The notes beneath the pieces were generated by a model, which did not search any database, was not told the DNA's origin, and saw only the letters and a program-made list of their open reading frames with translations. A stretch of DNA of 63,632 bases, filler included, from Basidiobolus ranarum (taxonomy: Eukaryota): assembly GCA_040143965.1 (NCBI GenBank). It is 10 parts of 10 records of this genome, joined end to end, with 100 filler letters (N's around TTAATTAATTAA, not from the genome) between each part and the next. Parts side by side here need not be neighbours in the genome. Positions count along the whole stretch, not along the records: positions 25,526 to 31,799 come from JASJQH010008232.1; 9 more parts are not named here. One strand, written 5' to 3'. The position numbers and the translations under genes are program-made. Shown here in pieces: positions 6,285-31,799 of this stretch; the first letter of the stretch is position 1; each line of letters opens with the position of its first letter.

Positions 6285-6384
6285 NNNNNNNNNNNNNNNN
6301 NNNNNNNNNNNNNNNNNNNNNNNNNNNNTTAATTAATTAANNNNNNNNNNNNNNNNNNNNNNNNNNNNNNNNNNNNNNNNNNNN
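6285..6384. other. Artificial contig spacer N44-TTAATTAATTAA-N44 (first of nine)
   Basis: Identical 100-bp spacers at 6285, 12667, 19048, 25426, 31800, 38173, 44543, 50909 and 57272; the 12-mer gives stops in all six frames. Confidence 0.99.
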
Positions 6385-7502: not shown

Positions 7503-9032
7503 CTACTGGGAGAGTATGAGCTTTGGGGCATATGCTGCAAATGAGAAGAGAATGCCGGAGACTAGTCCAGCACATGGTAAAGTCAAAATCCAGGAAAGGA
7601 AGCACCAAGCAATCAAGCGCCAATTCAATGAGCTAGCTGTACCGTTGCAAAGACCAACAGCGGCAGTGGCCCCAGTGATGCAATGAGTGGTGGATACGGG
7701 AAGTCCAATCTTGGAGGCAGTCAACACGGTCAAAGAACTACCCAATTCCATACTGAAACCACGAGTGGGAGAGTGATATGTGATTTTGTTACCAAGAGTA
7801 CGCATGATGTTGTAGCCATAGGTAACCAGACCAATATCAATGGCTACTCCACCCATTGCGAGTACCCACAAGGGCACTGCAGTCTTGCCACTGACATCAA
7901 CTGTGGCGGTACTCCATACATGGTATACAGTGGACAAAGGTCCTACAGCATTAGCGACATCGTTTGATCCATGAGCAAATGAGGCCATGGATGCAGTGAT
8001 TACTTGAAGGAAACTGTACATGTACTCGGTGTTGTCATCGTATCTCACAGCAGCATCATGGATCTTCTGAAGTCTTTCTCCTTCACAGTTGACCACATCC
8101 TTACGAACACCATGAAGCACAATGGCCTTGATGCGTTCGAAGATACCATCAGACTTCTCATGCTCTTCTTCCGAGATCTCATGCTTCTCGCTTTTCTCTT
8201 GCTTGCCATCCTCCTCAGAGAACACTTGCTTCATGGGACGAGGACTAAGGAAGGGGATTACAAAGATATGATACCACTCAAGGTCCTCATGCTTCTGGAG
8301 CTTGCGAACTAACCATGGACGAATGAAGAACCAACAGAATAATACTACGACTGCTGTAATTCCCAGTGTGGATCCCCAGATGACAGCTGGTGAGGCAGAA
8401 GCAAGGTTGAGGCCTGGTGAACCTTTGTAGATAATGTAGAATGCGTTGATGAATGCAGTGAATCCAAAGTAAATTGGGATGGCAATTAGTCCACGCTCGA
8501 AAGAGTTAGGGTGCTTCAACACTCCATATTTGGTGATCAAATAGATGATACTTGCAACGAGACCGGCGCAAATTGGGGAAATGAACCAAGACGTGATGAT
8601 CTTTGCTACTCCATTGTAACTCCAGTCGACAGAGTTGGTTCCAAAAGCAGCAATACCTACACCCATGATGGCTCCAACGATAGAATGGGTTGTGGACACT
8701 GGCCATCCATTTCTGGTGGCAAACAAGACCCAGGTGGAGGAACCGATTAAAGCACAAGTCATGGCAAGCATGAGAAGCTCTGGCTGACCTTGGAAGTTCT
8801 TGATGGAGATGATCTTACCTTTGATAGTTTCAGCTGTCCCAGAGCCCATTAAGAAGGCACCCAAAAACTCGGTGAAGATCGCTATGGTGCAAGCTTGACC
8901 GAGAGTAAGGGACTTGGAAGAAACTGAGGTAGAGAACGAGTTTGCAACGTCATTAGCACCAATACCATAAGCATCAAGGAATGCAAAGACAATGCAGACG
9001 ACGAATATCCAAGTAAAGTCGTGAGGTAACAT
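7503..9032 (-). CDS. PHO89: Na+/phosphate symporter, PiT (PHO4 domain) family, intronless, 509 aa
   Basis: Both PiT signature repeats (GANDVAN, HGSNDVAN) and both PVSTTH motifs in one open ORF. Confidence 0.96.
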   Translation of the reverse strand: MLPHDFTWIFVVCIVFAFLDAYGIGANDVANSFSTSVSSKSLTLGQACTIAIFTEFLGAFLMGSGTAETIKGKIISIKNFQGQPELLMLAMTCALIGSSTWVLFATRNGWPVSTTHSIVGAIMGVGIAAFGTNSVDWSYNGVAKIITSWFISPICAGLVASIIYLITKYGVLKHPNSFERGLIAIPIYFGFTAFINAFYIIYKGSPGLNLASASPAVIWGSTLGITAVVVLFCWFFIRPWLVRKLQKHEDLEWYHIFVIPFLSPRPMKQVFSEEDGKQEKSEKHEISEEEHEKSDGIFERIKAIVLHGVRKDVVNCEGERLQKIHDAAVRYDDNTEYMYSFLQVITASMASFAHGSNDVANAVGPLSTVYHVWSTATVDVSGKTAVPLWVLAMGGVAIDIGLVTYGYNIMRTLGNKITYHSPTRGFSMELGSSLTVLTASKIGLPVSTTHCITGATAAVGLCNGTASSLNWRLIAWCFLSWILTLPCAGLVSGILFSFAAYAPKLILSQ

Positions 9033-10832
9033 CTTTCAGATCGATGTTTTGTCGAATTATACTTTCTGGTTCAACATTTCATTCCGAGATACAGTTTTAT
9101 ACCTATTTGATCTTTCATTCAGACGTTGAACCTAAATATTCAGCACCGTGTGGTGAATGTGCTGAAGGATCGGATAAATCATTGCATCTAATTGTGCATA
9201 GTGTGTATCTGTTACTGTTGCTTCTTTTGGTTGCTTGGAACACCACATCTAACATGAGATTTCTCTCGGTATATCCATTGGCTATATAGCTACTTCGAAT
9301 TGGCGAAATCTCCCAAAATCTTCACAAACCTATTTCAAAAGAAGCATTCTTGAATCCTGTTGGCAAACAGGAACTCTGGTTCTCTACAGAGGAATTTATA
9401 CGATTATGATGAAAAGCTAATTTAATCTATATCACTGACTTTTTAAAGATCTCGATCACTAGATTCATTTCCCCAGTCTAGTTGGTGATCCTGAAAATTC
9501 TATTCACTATTCTATTACCAGAGCGAGATCCTCAAATGCTGCGGATTCAACTTGAAAGAAATGCTCAACAATGACCGAAGATTGTAGGATATTGAAACCA
9601 CATGTGGTATTGGGAACACCACCAATTGGCCAGCACTTGACTTCGAAACCTTAATTTCCTTGTTGTGATGATAGTTGATGCGAATTTTCACATTAAAAGC
9701 ACGTTTTCAACATGCTAGCCGTTCATGGCAGTTCCAGATTTTAGGGCTTTCGGCCATCTTAGACTAGTGGAACCCACAAAAAGGTTTATCTTGCACAACT
9801 CTTGTCACCAATGACGAAAGCGAAAGACGATGCGTGAAAAATACTTACTACGGTATTCGTATGTCATTTACGATGTTTCGTTATGTTCGCACTACAAAGT
9901 CACCAACGAATGTAATCATATGCTTATACCATATAGATACACTTCGTACATCGAGAAGCCATCTATACGCGAATACACTAATCTTCGAAATTCTGGGCCG
10001 TTATAATCTCGAATCTATTGCTCGTGAAGCACGAGAGATAGCGACTTGACGCTGTGGCCACAGAACTAGTACCATCACTAGCAGCTCGACTATGTAAATT
10101 TTCTCATTCGATGATGATGCTTACTAGCCTAAATAGTAACAATTCTTCTTAACATTCTCTGTGTTACCTTCGACAATGTTTAGTTCGCCAAGATATTCCA
10201 ACTGTTAAAAGTCGCACAGTTATTATTGATGATAGCATTTCCAGCTGCTAACTATACACATATAGCTCTGTAGAATGCTGTCTTCCTCACACATTCTATA
10301 GCAAATAGTGCTATAGATTTACCACCCAGTTAATGAGACTGACTCAGATTAGTTTACTGTAGATCATATTTTTCCAAGTAGGAGTTCATGTTGCTCTGAT
10401 GGTATGAGTCATATCTAGCCTAGAATACTCCATGTGCTATACGACTGATAACATTTGAAAAGCAACCGTTAACGAGAATGGGGAGCACACAAAGATCAGA
10501 TACTCAGCCATACTTCAACATTTCTAAATCTTAACTCGCGGTCAGGTTGAGCTGCTCTATTCGTCAACAACTTGAACTGACTGATATTCTTGTTCAGCAT
10601 TTGATGTTCTTTAAACACAGCTTTTTGAGCTATTATAGGATGAGGGTTTTACTCTATATTATGGCTGTAGAAACAGTAAGAGTAAGCAATGAGATATTCA
10701 GCATGTTTAATGCGCATTTATATAAAAATCTATTGGTCAAAATTCAAAAATGATTCTGGGTATATCACATATATTTTCAAATCGACCCTAGTTTTCTCAA
10801 ACTGTTCCGTCAATCTCCATCTTAGATTTATC

Positions 10833-11070
10833 CTAAATTGGTGGTTTCACTTATTAATTTATTGAGTAATCAGCTGACATTTATACTTTTGTCAAGATGT
10901 AAACAAACTAACATGTAGAATGCGTTAAGGAAGGTCCCAGGAACATGTGTGCAAAGTTTGAGGCTCCTTTGAAAAATCTATATATCTGACAACTTCTGTG
11001 TAAATATAGGATAACCCAATACTAAGCTATATATGAGTGTATAGATGTTTAGGCAATGCTAATTTCAACA
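10833..11070 (-). mobile_element. Family A LTR, truncated and internally deleted
   Basis: Ends ...GCAATGCTAATTTCAACA; shares the GGTCCCAGGAACATGTG core with other copies. Confidence 0.8.
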
Positions 11071-11774: not shown

Positions 11775-12121
11775 TGTTAAAGTATTTGGGAGCCTTTGGG
11801 AAGTGGTTTGGAGAATTAGAGGAATTGGTGGTTTTCACTTATTGTTTTATGAGTAGAAAGTTGACATTTATAGTTTTGTCAAGAAGTAAGCAAGCCAACA
11901 TGTAGAATGTGTTAAAGAAGGTCCCAGGAACATGTGTACAAAGTTTGGGGCTTCTAGCACAAGTTTGAAAAATCTAAATATCTGAGTACTTCTAGGTTGG
12001 TAAAGATATTCTAAGTAAATTCCAGTTGAGAATAATTGATATTATCTTAGTGACTTATAAGATAACCAAGTATTGAGCTATATAAGACTACTTAGGTGTT
12101 TAAGCAATGCTAATTTCAACA
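11775..12121 (-). mobile_element. Solo LTR, Copia family A (347 bp), with 5-bp target-site duplication AGGGT
   Basis: TGTT...AACA ends; AGGGT at 11770-11774 and 12122-12126. Confidence 0.92.
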
Positions 12122-12666: not shown

Positions 12667-12797
12667 NNNNNNNNNNNNNNNNNNNNNNNNNNNNNNNNNN
12701 NNNNNNNNNNTTAATTAATTAANNNNNNNNNNNNNNNNNNNNNNNNNNNNNNNNNNNNNNNNNNNNAAAGGCAATCATTCGTGATAACTAGGTGCAC

Positions 12798-14694
12798 CTA
12801 CGAAAATATGAAAAGATTTTTGGTTGCAGCGACGGCAATGGTATTCTCTCTTGGATGCCATGAGGTATGGAGAATTTTCTTGTTGAAATCCATGGTGTCT
12901 GGATTGATCTCCTCCTTCCTACCATTCTTGGCTCCACGACCAAGGCTCGATTTGTTCTTGGTAGAGCCAGCACGTTTAGCCTTGAAAGCGCTCTTGTCAG
13001 CTTGCAACGTGACTTCTTCCTTGTTGTTCGCATCAAAAATACTGAAATAGTTGCTGTAGGAGCCAGTGAGAATGGAGCTAATTTCTCGAATTAAGGACAA
13101 TGGGTAACACATCGCATGAACGTAGTAAAAGAAAGAAAAATTCAACTGGAAAAAGGATACTTTCCATCGCCGCTGACATTGCATTCAAATTTGTCGAAAA
13201 TACAATCATTTTCGTAAAGATCGCATAACTTGCAGCGATGATGGTCATGGTCGTTGATGGTCTCCACAGGCTTGCTGTCCATATTGATGTCCCAGATTTT
13301 CAGCGTCAGATAATCACGAGAAAGAATGTAGCGACCGTCACTACTGAACTTGACATCCGAGATTGAAGAGATGATTTCCGAGAAGAAGGACCTGCTACTG
13401 GGGTCTTCTTCCTCTTCAAACACTAAACAAATAAAAAAAGAGGTTGTGGTGATTAGCGCTCTGGCAATTGGGTGTGGTGATTGTTAGTATGACTGCCCTA
13501 CTCTTAGCATAGCGATCACAAAGAGCCGCCTCTCTCATATCGCAAAGTTTAATGGTTCCCTTACTACTGCTGTACATGAAAACGTTACAGTGCGATGGAT
13601 GAAACTCAGAAGCAGTAATTACTTCAGTCAGTTCCTCCATATTAGCAGGCTTAATGTCGACAATGTCTATGAAAAGGGAGGTTAAGGAAATAAACACTTT
13701 CAAATAACAATCGATCAATCATTTTCACCACCACAAAAAGATACTGAAGCTCTGGTCACTAATATCCAAGTTCCACAGATTGATTCGTAGATCGTCTCCA
13801 GAAAGGTATGTCTCTCCGTCAGAATTGATGGAGATAGAATTGATGTGATAAGCATGAGCATTAGCATATACCTTTCTGGGCACTGCGGCAACAATAGAAT
13901 CATGGTGGGTGAGTTTGGGAAGTTTTAGAGAGCCAGTGTTCAACGATGGCCGAGCCAAGCCATCTGTTATGTTCTTCTCAGAAACAACCTTTAGAGATTT
14001 CTCAAAAACCTTCCACAATTTGATGGTCTTGTCTGAATAATATTAAAAGTGACATGAGTAATAAGCACAGCACTTGTCCAACTGACCGAGTACGAGTACA
14101 TACCGTTAGTGGAAAGCAAGAAGTGAGCAGAATTTTGGCGTTTGCACCATCTGATCTTGTTAATTCTTTCTTCAATCTCTAAACTCTTCAAGTAATCGAA
14201 TTCAGGCTCGTGAGATTGGAATTCTGTATGAAATTTGTATTCACAGCCTTTTTTCTATAAACAAGTTAGAAATTTGAGGGATAGTTAAGTACGTAGAGTA
14301 AACATACCCCGTCATTTCTCTCAAATAATACCACTCTGCCTCCTCTATCACCAGTGGCAAGATAGTCGCCACTATGGTCAAACTCAACAGTAGAAATTAT
14401 GTCAACTATAGAAAGATCAATTCCAAGTTAGTTATGTCGAAGTATTGATACACGTAAGAAAGTCGATTTGACCAAAGTCAGAGGGGATAATAAGAAGTAA
14501 ACTAGTGGAAGGAAGAAAATAGATAGCTTGGATAAACTTCGCGTAGAATATAGGGCAACTGGGCACATTTCTGAGCTACGTAGAAATAGACCTTTAGAAG
14601 AGAAAATTCAGAACATACCTTCAGAGATGTCTTCGACATCCCCTTTGTCACCAAAACATTGGGCAAATTTCCATCCTCCATCAACTTCAGCCAT
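12798..14694 (-). CDS. CDC55: PP2A regulatory subunit B55 (WD40), 7 exons
   Basis: [125 protein letters not shown]. The exact last codons near the contig edge are uncertain. Confidence 0.96.
13078..13160 (-). other. U12-type (minor) GT-AG intron in CDC55, 83 nt
   Basis: 5'SS GTATCCTTTT; branch TCCTTAAT ending 11 nt before the 3' splice junction; splicing restores SGDGNSILTGSY. Confidence 0.9.
13667..13744 (-). other. U12-type (minor) GT-AG intron in CDC55, 78 nt
   Basis: 5'SS GTATCTTTTT; perfect branch TTTCCTTAAC ending 14 nt before the 3' splice junction; splicing restores QSFNIVDIKP. Confidence 0.88.
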
Positions 14695-20905: not shown

Positions 20906-21406
20906 ATTTCCTTTACACCCTCTGATCGAATCCTCTCGCTTTAGAAGTAAATTACATTCAATTGTTCCCCCCCTCCCCCTTGCCTTTTCTATTTGGATAT
21001 CTTTCGATGTAGAGTGACTTGTACCATAATCTACTTTCAATCACCTACACTTGCTTGAAATAAATCCTTAATCACGAATAGAGAATGACTCTTGACTTTT
21101 GGATGGTGAGCTATGTTTTATACTAGATTGTGACGAGATATCGATACAAATTCCACCTTACAAAAGACCAGCGTTGACTCTGATCCAACTACCAGTATAA
21201 CAATGAAAGTAGAAACATTACGAAACGAACATGAAAATCTGGCTAAAATGACCATTCGTCAACATCAATAGACAAGGGACGAAAGATTCATGAACGTTGT
21301 AAAATTTCCATTTCAAATTAATATACATGCTCCAGGATATTAAAACTTACGTAAAACGAAAAGAATTCGTTGAATCTTTCGATAATCATTTCGAAGCACG
21401 TTCAAT

Positions 21407-25425: not shown

Positions 25426-27516
25426 NNNNNNNNNNNNNNNNNNNNNNNNNNNNNNNNNNNNNNNNNNNNTTAATTAATTAANNNNNNNNNNNNNNNNNNN
25501 NNNNNNNNNNNNNNNNNNNNNNNNNCTTTGGAAGCTAACAAGTGAAGGACTATAGAATAGGAAAAAAGGACGTTCACACGTCAGGTCGACAATTGTACTT
25601 TTGCTTGGAATGAAGGTACACAACCGATTTTTCTTCAGAACTTTGTCTGTTTACTATAAAGGGAAGAGTAGGAGGGTTAATACGCACCAAGACTCGTGAT
25701 ATTATTGTAGGAATCATTATAACGCTGAAAGGAAGTTTTGCTTACTTGTGTAAATAGACTAGGTTACTTTGATGATAGGTTATACGTTCCAAATTTCCAT
25801 CAATTCAAGGAAGGGTGAAAATAAATAGGCAGTCGGACGATATCTTGAATACGATAGTTTAGATACGAAAGAAAATCATGCTCTACATATTAGAGTCAAC
25901 AAATTACCTTGAAAGTGAAGGGAAATAGAAACGAATCTACTATAATATGAGGTTAGTTAGAAGCACAAATAACCATAAAGTTGATTAGCTTACATTAACG
26001 AGTTGAGATCTAACAGACGATATGAAAGAGGAGAAGTGAACTTAATGTTGTCAAAATCTTGTCCTTACGAATTATTTTTATAGGACACAAAAGCCTGACA
26101 TGCTAAATGGAGCATACTCTTGTATATATCCTCATCGAGCTAACCATTCAAACGAGACAGGCATGATGATCCAGCTGCTTGTTTCTTTTGCTGGGTTTCC
26201 GCACAAATGCTGCTCCTACCTAATATATTGTATGCGAGTTTAAGTAGAACACCAGATATAACAAACTCAACTGCAGAACTCTGCCTTCCTACTTGAGCTC
26301 AATCTCGAAAAACACCACTTTGTAACAGTTATACGATGATTTATCACTTGCATGGTTGGTTATTAATTAGGAACTTTCTTAGAATTCGCTCAATGTTGAG
26401 AGCACCATACCTTCCATTCAATACTCTCCCCAGATGCCATAAAACAAAACAACTAGAAAAGCAATAAGTCTATGTTTATGGGGCTCGGTTTATTGTGCAG
26501 CATTACGACAACGCTGTACATATTCAAAGATGGAAACTACTATAACAAGCAAGTAATCAATCAACCAGAATGCACTATTGGATAGTAGAGACACCCAATT
26601 GAGCTCTCTTTGAGCTGGTGCTAAGAAACCTTTTACCAGCAGAGTTGCCTCAGAACACTGGGTGAGCGAGTAATACTGGATACAGTGCAATGAAATAGCA
26701 GGATGTTTGTCATGGCAACAAAACTCGAAACCATAGGCTATCTGGCAGTGATTTGGTGTTTGATATGCACTTACATCCCAGATAGAATCTCTTACGACAA
26801 AATGAAGTCAAATCGCTGCAATATTTACGTTTATTGCATGATCGTTGATTCACTTGTTGAATGCCAACTTTATGGTCAAGATCCTGTGTAGATTTAGTAA
26901 AAGTGAAGTATCAATGCATATATTATTATGAATAACACCAGCACTGATCCCACTCGCAACGGAAAATAGGACCACCATGTATGCCATCACTTCAACCAAC
27001 TCATGATCGTTTTCAAATACTGAAGAGGCGTGTTTCTTGACTGATGTTGCAATAAATGACTACACTGTAGTTCAATCACATCTTTCATTTGCCATGAAGT
27101 TCCTCGATCCTATTCGATTTTGTCACCACTACATTTTCGCATTTTTACAAAGCTTCAGTTTGATGTGAGAGGTGATTTTACACCTGCCTTATGCCATTTT
27201 CGTTGACCGCATATTTGATAGCTCAACAGTGCCTGCCAAAGAGCTTTACTAACCTTTTGTTGAGATCCAAAAAATTGGTAATTTATTTTCGAATTAAAGT
27301 TTCAAATCCATTTTCAATTATGTCTAAAAAGATTCTATATAAAATAAAACCATCGTTATACAAACAGCTCTAACAAAGTACATTTACATGCTAACCTAGT
27401 GAATGTACAAAGGATAAACTAAATAAAGATGGCTGGAGTTGAGGAGGCTTTACGAAGTAATTTTCAAAATAAATAACTAGCTATACGAGCAGAACATACA
27501 ATAGAATCACACTCAC

Positions 27517-29651
27517 TTAAAGCACTCTTTTTACTAAAGTCATAACACTTTCGATGTGCTTAGTTTGAGGGAATAGGTCGAAAGGAGTGATATCGACGAC
27601 ATCATAATCAGGTAAGGGGTTTTCGGCAGTGCTCTCACTGGCTTTCTTGTGAATGTAAGCCAAATCTCTTGCTTGTGTTTGAACGTTACAACTAACATAA
27701 ACCACACGAGCAGGTGCGAATTTGAGTAATTGATCGAGGAAGCTATCACTGCAGCCCTTACGGGGTGGATCGATAACCATAGCACTCTCATTACCATCGA
27801 ATTTGACTTCTTTGAAGATCTCCTCCGCATCCCCTACAATAAACTCACAATTGTTGATGTTGTTAAGTTCAACATTTTGCTTGGCATAGTTAACAGAATC
27901 ACGAGAGATTTCAACACCTATCAAAAGAAAAATTAGAATATGAAGCATAAACCACAAAGCTATCCAGTTATCTACATACCCAACACTTTGTCAAATTTGG
28001 CATGGCATGAAATAGCAAATAACCCAGATCCGCAATAAGCATCGACCATATACTTAATTTTGGACTTGTCTTCCTCGGTGGCTTGCAAATGCTCAGCAGC
28101 ATAATTGATAAGGAGAGGAAGAATCGATGCGTTGTTTTGGAAGAAAGAACCTAAAATTATATGTATAGAGTTTAGACTCAGATTAACATCCAAATGATAC
28201 TTGTAGTTATTAATTACCGGCAGGGAAATCAAACCGGTGCTTCTCCACCATTTCAGTAACGATCTTCTTGTGGTCCGTAATATATCCTTTTTCGTAGATA
28301 ACTTCTCCGTTTTCATCTTTGTTTTCTTGGGGAATGTTGGTCTCTCTGATCAACAAAGTGGCACCACGCTTGTATGTATCTTTGTTTCTTTGATAAGCAG
28401 ACAAATTAGTCAATTGAATGAAGCATTTTACCACTGCGTAAGACTTACTCGAAAACATAATCTCTCATAACTCCATAACCTTTTTGGATTGATGGGGTTC
28501 CTATCATGCAGTCTTCAATATCCAAAATTTGGCGGCGACCTTGGATGGCAAAACCAATCTCAACTTTCTCTAAAGTACTCTTAGGCTTCTGGAAATGTGG
28601 AGTGAGCTTGGTTCTGTACCCAAACTCCATAGGAGAGCCAACAACATCATTTACAGTGAGACTTTTTACATTAGCTATTAAGATTAAAACTGTTAGTAAA
28701 ACTACGATTCAAGTGAGAAATGAATAGTACTGCTTCTTACGAGCAAAATTCTTGAATGCGTTTATAACAACATTCTTCTTGAACTCTTTTTGTTTCTAAA
28801 GAATATAACCAAAATAAGTTTATACTAATCAACACGCTCAATCATACTAAAGCATACCTCATAAGTCAAATGTTGGAACTGACAACCAGAGCATGTGCCG
28901 AAGTATTTGCAGGGGGCTGAAATACGCTCAGGAGAAGGAGTGAGAACCTCCACCAAATCAGCAAAAGAATATCCCCTATTAGAGTGAACTATTCTAAGCA
29001 TTTGATAATCATAAAAATATAATATTCGATAGATATATTTACCAGCAAGACCTATACACTCGAGCACGAATTTTTTCTCCGGGTAATACAAAAGGTACGA
29101 GAACAACCCAACCGTTATCCTCAATTATACCCATACCTTCACCTAATTAGTTAAAGATATGCGTTTAGTTAGTTGCTTCTAAAAATGTAAAGCAATACAA
29201 TGATACCTGAAGCAGCCAACTCTCGAATTACAAGCTCGATTTCCTGGAGATGTTCGAAGGGGTTTTGTCTCTCTTCCTCATTCGTATCCTTTGTTTTATC
29301 GTCAAGTTTTTCCCAGTAGCTTTTTCTAACATTATCGATGTCATATCTTAAGACATCGTCCAAGTCTTTCTTAAGTTTACGTTGAGATCTTTTTCTTTTT
29401 CCTGTGATTTTCTTTGGTTTCACCTCTTGTTTTTCTGTGTCAGAGGGAAGGGCGGTAACAGTGGGCTGAATTTCGGTAACTTGTGCACTATCCATTCTGA
29501 ATTTAGAGTTGAAATGTTTTGCGGAGAATTGGGTAGGGGCTAGTGTGGACTTTGTTCTCAAAGATATGTGTGAGCGGGCTAGTATCAAGTTGCTTGGTAA
29601 AATAGGGCGTATGTTTGTTAAAAGCTTCCAAGAAGTCTTAAGTGAATGCAT
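27517..29651 (-). CDS. TRM2: tRNA (uracil-54-C5)-methyltransferase, multi-exon
   Basis: TRAM-like region, CKYFGTCSGCQFQH, SFFQNN, VDAYCGSGLFA, VIDPPRKG, VYVSCN, FDLFPQTKHIES. In-frame ATGs at 29651 and 29495. Confidence 0.93.
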
Positions 29652-30671
29652 ACACAACTATGAATAACAAGGCAGGAAATATGTCAATGAATATTTAATA
29701 CTTGAGTTTCTACTGATGCATTACATTTCTTTTTTTTTCTTTTTACTCTCCTCACATTTTTTCTTGATTTTTTCAGAACGCAATTCACTGGGGCTCCAGA
29801 TCCCAACAATATTTTTTGACCTCGAGATCATTAGTGATGGGCGCTTAAAATAAGCCACATTTTAATCAACCTTTACTACTTTTCGATTCTTTGGTCCAGA
29901 TTTGTGTACACGTGATCAGGGTGGACGATCCGGTATCAATCATCATGGAATCCGCGTAAAACACGCCCATGTCATATAACTAGGAATGCGTTCTGATTAA
30001 ATAATTCCATTTATGTCCTACAACCATTCATTGGCCAAAACCTCGATATATCATCCATCCACGGACAGGTCCATCGGAACTCTAAATCTTATTAACTGCC
30101 CGTTTGTTGAATTTTCTATTTTCGACAAGTACACGGGATGTAGACGACACAAATGTTTCGATGATGCATGAATCATGTTCATCATCAGTCTGGTTTAATA
30201 TCCAGAATACTCTAGGTATGGCTCTTTCCTCTTTGGAAACTTGGTCACACAGAGCCAGGTCATCTGGCATTATTTTCCTCTGGTTGTATCGACTTCGCGC
30301 GAATATTCGATAATATTATTGCATACTCTGCTGGCCAACCAAGTGCAGAGTTTTATTAAGAAATTCAAGGCCATGTAATATTGCTGCTCGGACACACCGT
30401 TGAAAGTTTTCGACTTGCAACTATTGGCTGATATGGATATAGACTAGGAGTTAAAATTGTTTGTACCACTTACACTACCCTTCTATAGTTCATCACCCTA
30501 CTTAATTAATTATTAATCTGAGTGGTTTTAGAAAAGCGACTTTTTGATAATTTAGTTCTGTCTTTAGTCTTACATTTTAGTAGCAATATATTCTTTCTTC
30601 CTCATACCATATTTCCAGTTATTACTCAGCGCAATTGCTTTAATTCCATAAAAACATAGCTGCTCTTTACT

Positions 30672-31799
30672 ATGTTTTTCCTGAGTTTCTTAAGAAGTCA
30701 CACATTTCTACTTTTGGTAACACTTGCTACAGTGGTAGTTGCTCAAAGTACATCTGGTATTAGATCACGCTAAATTTCTTTCGTTTTTAACTGTTCTACT
30801 AACACTTTATTTTATAACACAAACAGTTGATGACATTACCACCACCTGTGGACCAAATATATATTGTCTGCCTTTAGAAGGCGCATTATGGTTACCCCAA
30901 CAAAACCGATTTGTCAGATGGAATAGCAAATACCCCACCTTTGCCGTTGCAGGTTTTGTAAATATAAGCCTATACAATACTCAGTCTACCAATCCTGTAA
31001 GGCAATGGCCACTTTATGAGAATGCCGAGGGCCTTCTGGCTATAAATAGTTTTGATTCCAATTGGTTTATTGGAGCCGCTTTAGTCCAAAAGTTCTACTT
31101 TATTATATTAGGCCCTAACGATAACCCGTCCTTGGCTCAATTAGGCCCAGTTTTTTCTATTCAAAGTATGTATAGGCAGAGCATTATTGTCGATCTTGGA
31201 TAGTATTTATAACTATTTAATTGATGAAATAGGTTCGCTTTCATCAACCGCAAGCCCAACTACATCTATCACTAATTCTGCGAGCCCAACATCCAACCCT
31301 AAGCCTTCTGGTATATCCAGCGGGAGTTTTCCCACTGGAACATCTGGCACAAGATTACCAGATCACGAGTCTGGCGGACTCTCAGTTGGGGCCATTTGTG
31401 GAATCGCTGTAGGAAGTGTGCTGTTGGTTACTGCAGTGGCTTGATATCCTTTTTATTTCTCACCCAAATGATCAACTACTGTATAGCATACCCATATTTA
31501 TCCTTAACTTCTTCTCACTCTCATTTATGTCGCTCGACGTCGACAAAAGAATCACAAAAAAGGATACGATTTCCAGCTTGAATCTGAATCTGGATCTGGA
31601 GTTAACGGCTATAGCGCCGCAAGTCCAGCCATTTTAGCTACTGCTCGTGATAACAGCTCAAATAGTGACGCCGACTCAACAATACCTATGTCAGAAAGCC
31701 TTAGCCCTACCAAGCGAAACTCTCTTTGCCTTACTGTCAAGGGTGCTCAAGAACTAGCCCACGCCGTATCAGACTTTGGTAACTCTGCTTCACAGTTTT
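30672..31799 (+). CDS. Type I single-pass surface protein (signal peptide, globular ectodomain, S/T stalk, TM, cytoplasmic tail); 3' end cut by contig edge
   Basis: MFFLSFLRSHTFLLLVTLATVVVAQ; introns 30748-30826, 31166-31232 (GT-AG) and 31444-31518 (AT-AC); TM GLSVGAICGIAVGSVLLVTAVACLIYVA followed by RRRQK; the frame stays open to the contig end. Confidence 0.85.
31444..31518 (+). other. U12-type AT-AC intron, 75 nt
   Basis: 5'SS ATATCCTTTT, branch TCCTTAAC at 31501-31508, 3'SS CAC. Removal deletes in-frame stops and joins TG+T (Cys) inside the TM helix. Confidence 0.92.

Follow-up and report, generated by a model that had tools for sequence, protein, structure and literature searches.

The locus and its gene

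The window analysed here, i.e., the whole stretch of 63,632 bases (GC content 38%) from Basidiobolus ranarum, consists of ten pieces of about 6.3 kb each. The pieces are joined by linkers of the form N44-TTAATTAATTAA-N44, and the N runs of these linkers start at positions 6285, 12667, 19048, 25426, 31800, 38173, 44543, 50909 and 57272. Genes at the ends of the pieces are therefore truncated, and pieces joined here may lie apart in the genome. This applies to the gene described here, which sits on the plus strand in the piece 25526-31799 (6274 bases) and loses its 3' end at the end of the piece. Judged by homologs, the missing part amounts to approximately 80 residues. On the minus strand of another piece, an intron-free open reading frame of 510 codons (7506-9035) encodes a PHO4/SLC20-type phosphate transporter, which shows 91% identity to a protein of B. 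ranarum and 77-87% to proteins of B. meristosporus; a match of 100% is absent from the collection searched.

The gene on the plus strand starts with exon 1 (30672..30756), which comprises the ATG and a signal peptide (MFFLSFLRSH...VVAQSTS) and ends in phase 1. A GT-AG intron of 70 nt (30757..30826; GTATTAG...TACTAAC...ACAG) separates it from exon 2 (30827..31165), which encodes the ectodomain, a confidently predicted Ig/FnIII-like beta-sandwich that matches the Pfam family Psg1 (PF14610). After a second GT-AG intron of 67 nt (31166..31232; GTATGT...AATAG), exon 3 (31233..31443) contributes a Ser/Thr-rich stalk, where Ser and Thr make up 47% of the first 45 residues, as well as the first 19 or so residues of a transmembrane (TM) helix, and ends with TG in phase 2. 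Both GT-AG introns have to be removed to match the public protein P0133 (see below). The subsequent 75 nt, 31444..31518, form the predicted U12-type AT-AC intron that is the subject of this report. Exon 4 (31519..31765) opens with the T that completes Cys212 and encodes LIYVA, the stop-transfer sequence RRRQK and a cytoplasmic tail up to ...SLCLTVKGAQELAHA.

A further intron with the donor GTATCAGAC probably starts at 31766 and occupies the remainder of the piece (31766..31799). At this point the homologs diverge from the window: after ELAHA they continue with YRKML, where the window has VSDFGNSASQF. Since the homologs read AHA-YRKML and a GTATCAGAC donor is present at 31766, the last 11 open codons are probably intronic. 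The initial annotation had described an open tail of more than 90 residues; the frame is indeed open for 93 codons to 31799, but only 82 of these (31520-31765) are likely exonic.

The predicted product comprises a signal peptide, a folded ectodomain, a stalk, a TM segment at residues 193-217 (hydropathy peak) and a basic stop-transfer sequence, with the exon junction at codon 212. The intron thus falls within the TM segment, and the joint lies about five residues short of the cytoplasmic end of the helix. A luminal domain at the N-terminus and a single TM segment give the predicted protein the type I topology of Psg1/Ykl077w.

Splice signals and reading frame of the AT-AC intron

Across the site, the plus strand reads ...GTG GCT TG|ATATCCTTTTTATTTC...TTTATCCTTAACTTCTTCTCAC|T CTC ATT TAT GTC GCT CGA CGT CGA CAA AAG. 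The intron (75 nt, phase 2, GC content 0.32) opens with ATATCCTTTT (31444-31453), and its 5' splice site ATATCCTTT (31444..31452) matches the U12-type consensus /ATATCCTT. U12-type branch-point sequences follow the consensus TCCTTRAY and lie approximately 8-20 nt upstream of the intron's 3' end. The sequence TCCTTAAC at 31501..31508 agrees with this consensus, and its branch A, at 31507, is 11 nt away from the final base of the intron. The terminal AC at 31517..31518, which is part of a CAC, is the sole AC or AG 8-20 nt past the branch A, and excision up to this site restores the frame. Hence, the full U12 signature put forward by the initial annotation can be read directly from the DNA.

In the unspliced frame, GCT TGA at 31439-31444 places a stop codon (31442-31444) directly after ...LLVTAVA. 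This TGA is composed of the TG of the exon and the first base of the intron, and reading through it yields YPFYFSPK. In the spliced frame, TG|T encodes Cys (codon 212, phase 2), followed by LIYVARRRQK. Both outcomes had been predicted by the initial annotation, namely a spliced product ...LLVTAVA-C-LIYVARRRQK and, upon retention, a TGA at the junction.

The translated tail (31520-31798) matches the B. meristosporus protein K493DRAFT_73732 (P0001, 375 aa) with an E value of 3.5e-31, an identity of 77% and a query coverage of 88%, and this identity marks the tail as conserved coding sequence. P0001 itself reads ...VTTIACLIYFIRRKR across the junction; used as a query, it retrieves seven Basidiobolus proteins along with a spurious Penicillium match that covers 8% of the query. 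The spliced window protein was aligned with 21 relatives, 19 of which span the junction. All 19 carry a residue in the junction column without a gap (Cys in six of them), and the spliced protein stays collinear with every one across the TM helix and the basic stop-transfer sequence.

To compare alternative sites, every GT-AG, GC-AG and AT-AC pair near the site with a stop-free frame into the conserved tail was enumerated. Among the 24 in-frame pairs, only 31444/31518 preserves A-C-LIY..RRR and the collinearity with the homologs. Four other AT-AC pairs use an AC at 31555 or 31567 and forfeit the stop-transfer sequence. The other 19 are GT-AG or GC-AG pairs that leave the frame open into the tail, and in principle an ordinary intron of this kind might be used, with the U12-like motifs being coincidental. 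Yet, all 19 donors are poor (e.g., GTTGGG, GTGCTG or GCAGTG), the acceptors (31549, 31562 or 31576) are all located within conserved coding sequence, and each pair would remove at least 10 conserved residues, including the basic stop-transfer sequence and part of the TM segment. The AG at 31485-31486, which the initial annotation had singled out as the acceptor of a competing GT-AG intron, has no in-frame donor among the enumerated GT-AG, GC-AG and AT-AC pairs. We regard the use of an ordinary GT-AG or GC-AG intron as the least credible account of the locus.

The motifs of the AT-AC intron are enriched in the window. The 5' motif RTATCCTTT occurs seven times (1.95 expected), and TCCTTAAC occurs eight times (2.22 expected); none of 100 shuffled sequences reaches seven or eight, respectively. 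A permissive composite pattern, consisting of the 5' motif, 30-500 nt, the branch motif, 7-14 nt and AC or AG, is found twice, at 31444-31518 and at 13078-13160 on the minus strand. In 300 random surrogates the same pattern occurs 0.19 times on average, at least once in 50 and at least twice in 6. Accordingly, the motif pattern alone is only moderately unlikely, as chance generates it in about 1 in 6 random windows of this size; it is suggestive, not decisive. The weight of the intron call derives from the exact coincidence of the motif with the sole splice that restores homolog collinearity.

Several other candidates were rejected. Matches to RTATCCTTT at 28282, 29284 and 31559(-) are antisense to genes or lie within exons, and loose AT-AC candidates at 20997, 40393, 55272(-) and 2591(-) lack open frames on their flanks and were attributed to chance. 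Separately, a dispersed repeat of approximately 140-216 nt, with copies 85-86% similar, is present at 1796-2011, 10835-10977 and 11775-11990, in opposite orientation and in two pieces; it contributes two of the eight TCCTTAAC matches (1868+ and 10931-).

The public record and the unspliced reading

A profile built from seven relatives was searched against 1.84 billion representative sequences and returned 143 matches at E <= 1e-10, of which 17 reached E <= 1e-30. One of the matches is P0133 (211 aa), the hypothetical protein K7432_013540 of B. ranarum, which is identical to exons 1-3 of the window and ends at the junction TGA. This identity confirms introns 1 and 2 and indicates that the AT-AC intron was missed by the annotation. 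The public 211-aa model is an apparent annotation artefact, which reads into the unspliced intron. The expectation of the initial annotation that prediction limited to GT-AG introns overlooks such a site is borne out, in that P0133 corresponds exactly to the unspliced reading. A literature search retrieved no description of the method by which B. ranarum was annotated.

Taken at face value, P0133 would be the true product: the TGA at 31442-31444 would be a real stop, and the downstream frame would be untranslated or a decaying remnant. The public model does end at this codon, and the end of the contig cuts the gene, so that a complete downstream frame is not demonstrable. On the other hand, the 82 downstream codons, with their close match to the tail of P0001, are free of stops and frameshifts; the frame resumes with the next residues of the homologs after exactly 75 nt that bear a perfect U12 signature; and a protein ending in the middle of a TM segment without a stop-transfer sequence is atypical, as 19 of the 21 aligned homolog models go on. 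A true stop at this position is therefore highly improbable, albeit marginally less so than a GT-AG or GC-AG intron.

An ordinary, constitutively removed U12-type AT-AC intron combined with a mis-annotated public model very probably accounts for the locus. In the minor spliceosome, U11 and U6atac recognise the U12-type 5' splice site, and U12 pairs with the branch sequence. By this established mechanism, ATATCCTTT would be recognised by U11 and U6atac, and TCCTTAAC would pair with U12. Excision would then join TG|T to form Cys212 and bring back the stop-transfer sequence RRRQK together with the tail.

Minor introns in Basidiobolus

Basidiobolus includes the fungus for which the highest density of minor introns has been reported. 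In two surveys, this species, B. meristosporus, is listed with a density of 0.554% (n=249; Larue & Roy 2023, PMC10639083), unsurpassed in fungi, and its genome contains the genes for U11, U12 and U6atac (Olthof et al. 2024, PMC11347168); the numbers of minor introns given are 249 and 237, respectively (PMC10639083; PMC11347168). The AT-AC intron resembles the catalogued B. meristosporus introns, with the 5' sequence ATATCCTT, TCCTTAAC near the 3' end and a terminal AC, and its non-zero phase agrees with reports that minor introns tend to avoid phase 0. A search of the 63-kb window with Rfam yielded no matches and no snRNA.

Two further U12-type introns, both with GT-AG termini, are found on the minus strand of the window in the gene for the PP2A regulatory subunit B55 (12767-14600). 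The first (13078-13160, 83 nt) has the form GTATCCTTTT...TCCTTAAT, with the branch 13 nt from the end and a terminal AG, and the exons on either side of it are exactly collinear with human B55alpha, the alignment running to residue 354 and again from residue 356, with the split codon corresponding to 355. The second (13667-13744, 78 nt) has the form GTATCTTTTT...TTCCTTAAC, 15 nt from the end, again followed by AG; here the exons align up to residue 212 and from residue 214, and codon 213 is split. These introns, validated by collinearity, imply a working minor-splicing system. A literature search for PPP2R2A with a U12-type intron found nothing relevant.

The B55 introns and the AT-AC intron share the genome, the class of branch motif, the short length, a non-zero phase and validation by collinearity. 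They differ in their termini and in their hosts. B55 is an ancient, highly conserved eukaryotic gene and thus a usual home for minor introns, which are said to concentrate in old core genes, whereas the AT-AC intron resides in a family that is fungus-wide but not pan-eukaryotic.

Identity of the host protein

The gene is predicted to encode a membrane glycoprotein and to belong to the Psg1/Ykl077w-like (PF14610) family of fungal type I membrane proteins, which has more than 10 paralogs in Basidiobolus. Exon 2 alone matches the Pfam model Psg1 with an E value of 0.0038. Measured against the gathering score of 30.1 bits, P0133 falls below (20.7 bits) and P0001, its closest relative, above the cut-off (32.0 bits), and within the family, 26 of 35 proteins reach E <= 0.01, the best value being 6.4e-10. 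The window protein has a relative in B. meristosporus with 57% identity, and the named relatives further include proteins from Neoconidiobolus, Syncephalis, Calcarisporiella, Rhizopus, Ambispora and two basidiomycetes (a Microbotryomycete and Thelephora). In view of this relative, the many paralogs and the Psg1 matches, the description of the protein as orphan-like in the initial annotation has to be abandoned.

An AlphaFold model of P0133, based on an alignment of 35 rows, has a mean pLDDT of 80.5, exceeds 90 at residues ~31-140, where it adopts a beta-sandwich, and places a helix at 193-210. Searches with Foldseek against the PDB retrieved generic Ig/FnIII folds only, none at E <= 0.001.

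Yeast Psg1 is described as a Golgi/COPI protein that is cleaved by Kex2 and required for the stability of Pma1 (Geva et al. 2017, PMC5607100). The S. cerevisiae protein and the window protein have in common the type I topology and a luminal/extracellular domain under the same Pfam model, with the score of the latter below the cut-off as given above. Kex2 cleavage, Exp1 binding and the role in Pma1 stability are features of yeast Psg1 known from yeast work only (PMC5607100). Moreover, yeast, unlike Basidiobolus, lacks minor introns. The Basidiobolus tail carries the motif SLRLTVKDAQELAH-YRKML...YSDELLRRELAAEG, and the likeness to yeast Psg1 rests on the Pfam ectodomain and the topology. In the family alignment, the tail motifs SLRLTVKDAQ-LA--YR--LRKP-W and YSDELLRRELAAEG-GVK are strongly conserved, and the former recurs in the Rhizopus, Calcarisporiella and basidiomycete relatives.

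The comparison with Mid2/Wsc sensors made by the initial annotation stands as far as the architecture is concerned: a signal peptide, a Ser/Thr-rich stalk, a single TM segment, a basic stop-transfer sequence and a cytoplasmic tail are shared, and several relatives are labelled “Mid2 domain-containing” in UniRef. It does not extend to the domains. The cysteine-rich WSC domain has no Pfam match in the family, and Pfam Mid2 (PF04478) matches only 1 of 35 members (E 0.004), which is not the window protein; the latter instead has a predicted folded Ig-like ectodomain.

Probable footprints of the intron in paralogs

A screen of 154 family proteins identified four that end within a hydrophobic helix: P0133, P0137, P0164 and a fragment of an unrelated protein from fish. 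P0137 (K7432_009463, 237 aa) and P0164 (K7432_009049, 220 aa) both stop at the window's junction column, after I-YLFI and I-YPFVSIL, respectively. The unspliced frame of the window reads (TG)A TAT CCT TTT, i.e., x-Y-P-F, and by the same phase 2 reading, AT|ATATCCTTT encodes I-Y-P-F. The sequence I-Y-L-F is compatible with ATATCTTTT, the GT form of which, GTATCTTTTT, opens a validated intron in the window. Overall, the paralog read-throughs fit ATATC(C/T)TTT in phase 2.

The first 233 residues of P0137 are identical to those of P0275 (346 aa), which is also assigned to K7432_009463 and goes on with ALVVYRRR. If this pair reflects retention, the intron is in phase 2 and starts with A, C or T, not with G; an alternative acceptor, instead of retention, may likewise underlie the two forms.

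The pair bears on whether retention of the intron serves as a programmed switch, in addition to ordinary splicing, an idea of the initial annotation. In such a scheme, splicing would generate an anchored, tail-bearing protein, and retention would generate a tail-less form of 211 residues. The latter would terminate with 19 hydrophobic residues, lack a signalling or sorting tail and could resemble a GPI signal or be weakly anchored. The TGA is positioned exactly at the junction, the retained product ends with ...HESGGLSVGAICGIAVGSVLLVTAVA, where small residues precede a hydrophobic C-terminus, and the annotation of K7432_009463 lists two forms, one spliced (346 aa) and one truncated (237 aa), which would attest to retained RNA if they derive from transcripts. 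Minor introns are often inefficiently spliced, which also speaks for the scheme. Yet, in any AT-rich intron a stop is likely to turn up early in the frame by chance, translation into the intron ends after 0, 4 and 7 codons in the three cases, with no conserved peptide, and a premature stop upstream of the further intron at 31766 would more plausibly lead to decay. A programmed switch is thus speculative and unlikely, and unspliced transcripts, if there are any, would most likely reflect the ordinary inefficiency of minor splicing of a constitutively removed intron.

The window protein shares only 29% identity with P0137 and 24% with P0164, and the use of the same column in such distant paralogs points to an old position of the intron within the family. 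Judged from protein models only, the paralogs carry the intron as well, and we infer that its position was in place before at least three lineages of Basidiobolus paralogs split. Ten B. ranarum models from nine loci (K7432_006643, 003191, 002074, 014051, 002029, 000156, 007472, 005302 and the 346-aa isoform of 009463) are uninterrupted at the junction column, as are all six junction-spanning B. meristosporus models. These uninterrupted models either lack an intron at this site, or their annotation was aided by transcripts.

Weaker hints come from other records. K7432_008223 and K7432_008222 (P0139 and P0142) are adjacent loci on one contig of 14,019 bases, of which the former encodes the N-terminal ectodomain and the latter the C-terminal tail of a single family member; the stalk and the TM segment are absent between their products. 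In B. meristosporus P0132, the N-terminal half of the TM segment is missing. Possibly, these cases represent further annotation damage by the same unmodelled intron. The short members of a Rhizopus cluster, P0277, P0278 and P0282, are shortened at the N-terminus, not truncated in the TM segment, and bear no intron footprint. Among metagenome contigs searched with the family alignment, 66 pattern matches were obtained, none of which was confirmed as a related locus.

Implications

Minor introns are already known to be unusually dense in Basidiobolus, and the intron described here adds no mechanism. Its practical consequence lies in the public records. At least three B. ranarum entries, K7432_013540, K7432_009049 and one isoform of K7432_009463, are truncated in the TM segment, putatively owing to an unmodelled AT-AC intron, and the locus split into K7432_008223 and K7432_008222 is a probable fourth. 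Truncated TM proteins that end with x-Y-P/L-F provide a simple footprint by which missed AT-AC introns can be found.

The initial annotation had weighed a lineage-specific gain of the intron; its position, shared with such distant paralogs, is old at least within Basidiobolus. The two surveys reconstruct a low ancestral density of minor introns for Zoopagomycota and regard their gain as extremely rare (PMC10639083; PMC11347168). The intron might have been gained after the origin of the fungus-specific Psg1-like family, long after LECA, and then multiplied as the Basidiobolus paralogs duplicated, a scenario that we consider conceivable but doubtful. A minor intron common to paralogs whose family is known from fungi only constitutes a testable case for late minor-intron gain, and the shared intron is also relevant to the question of why Basidiobolus is rich in minor introns.
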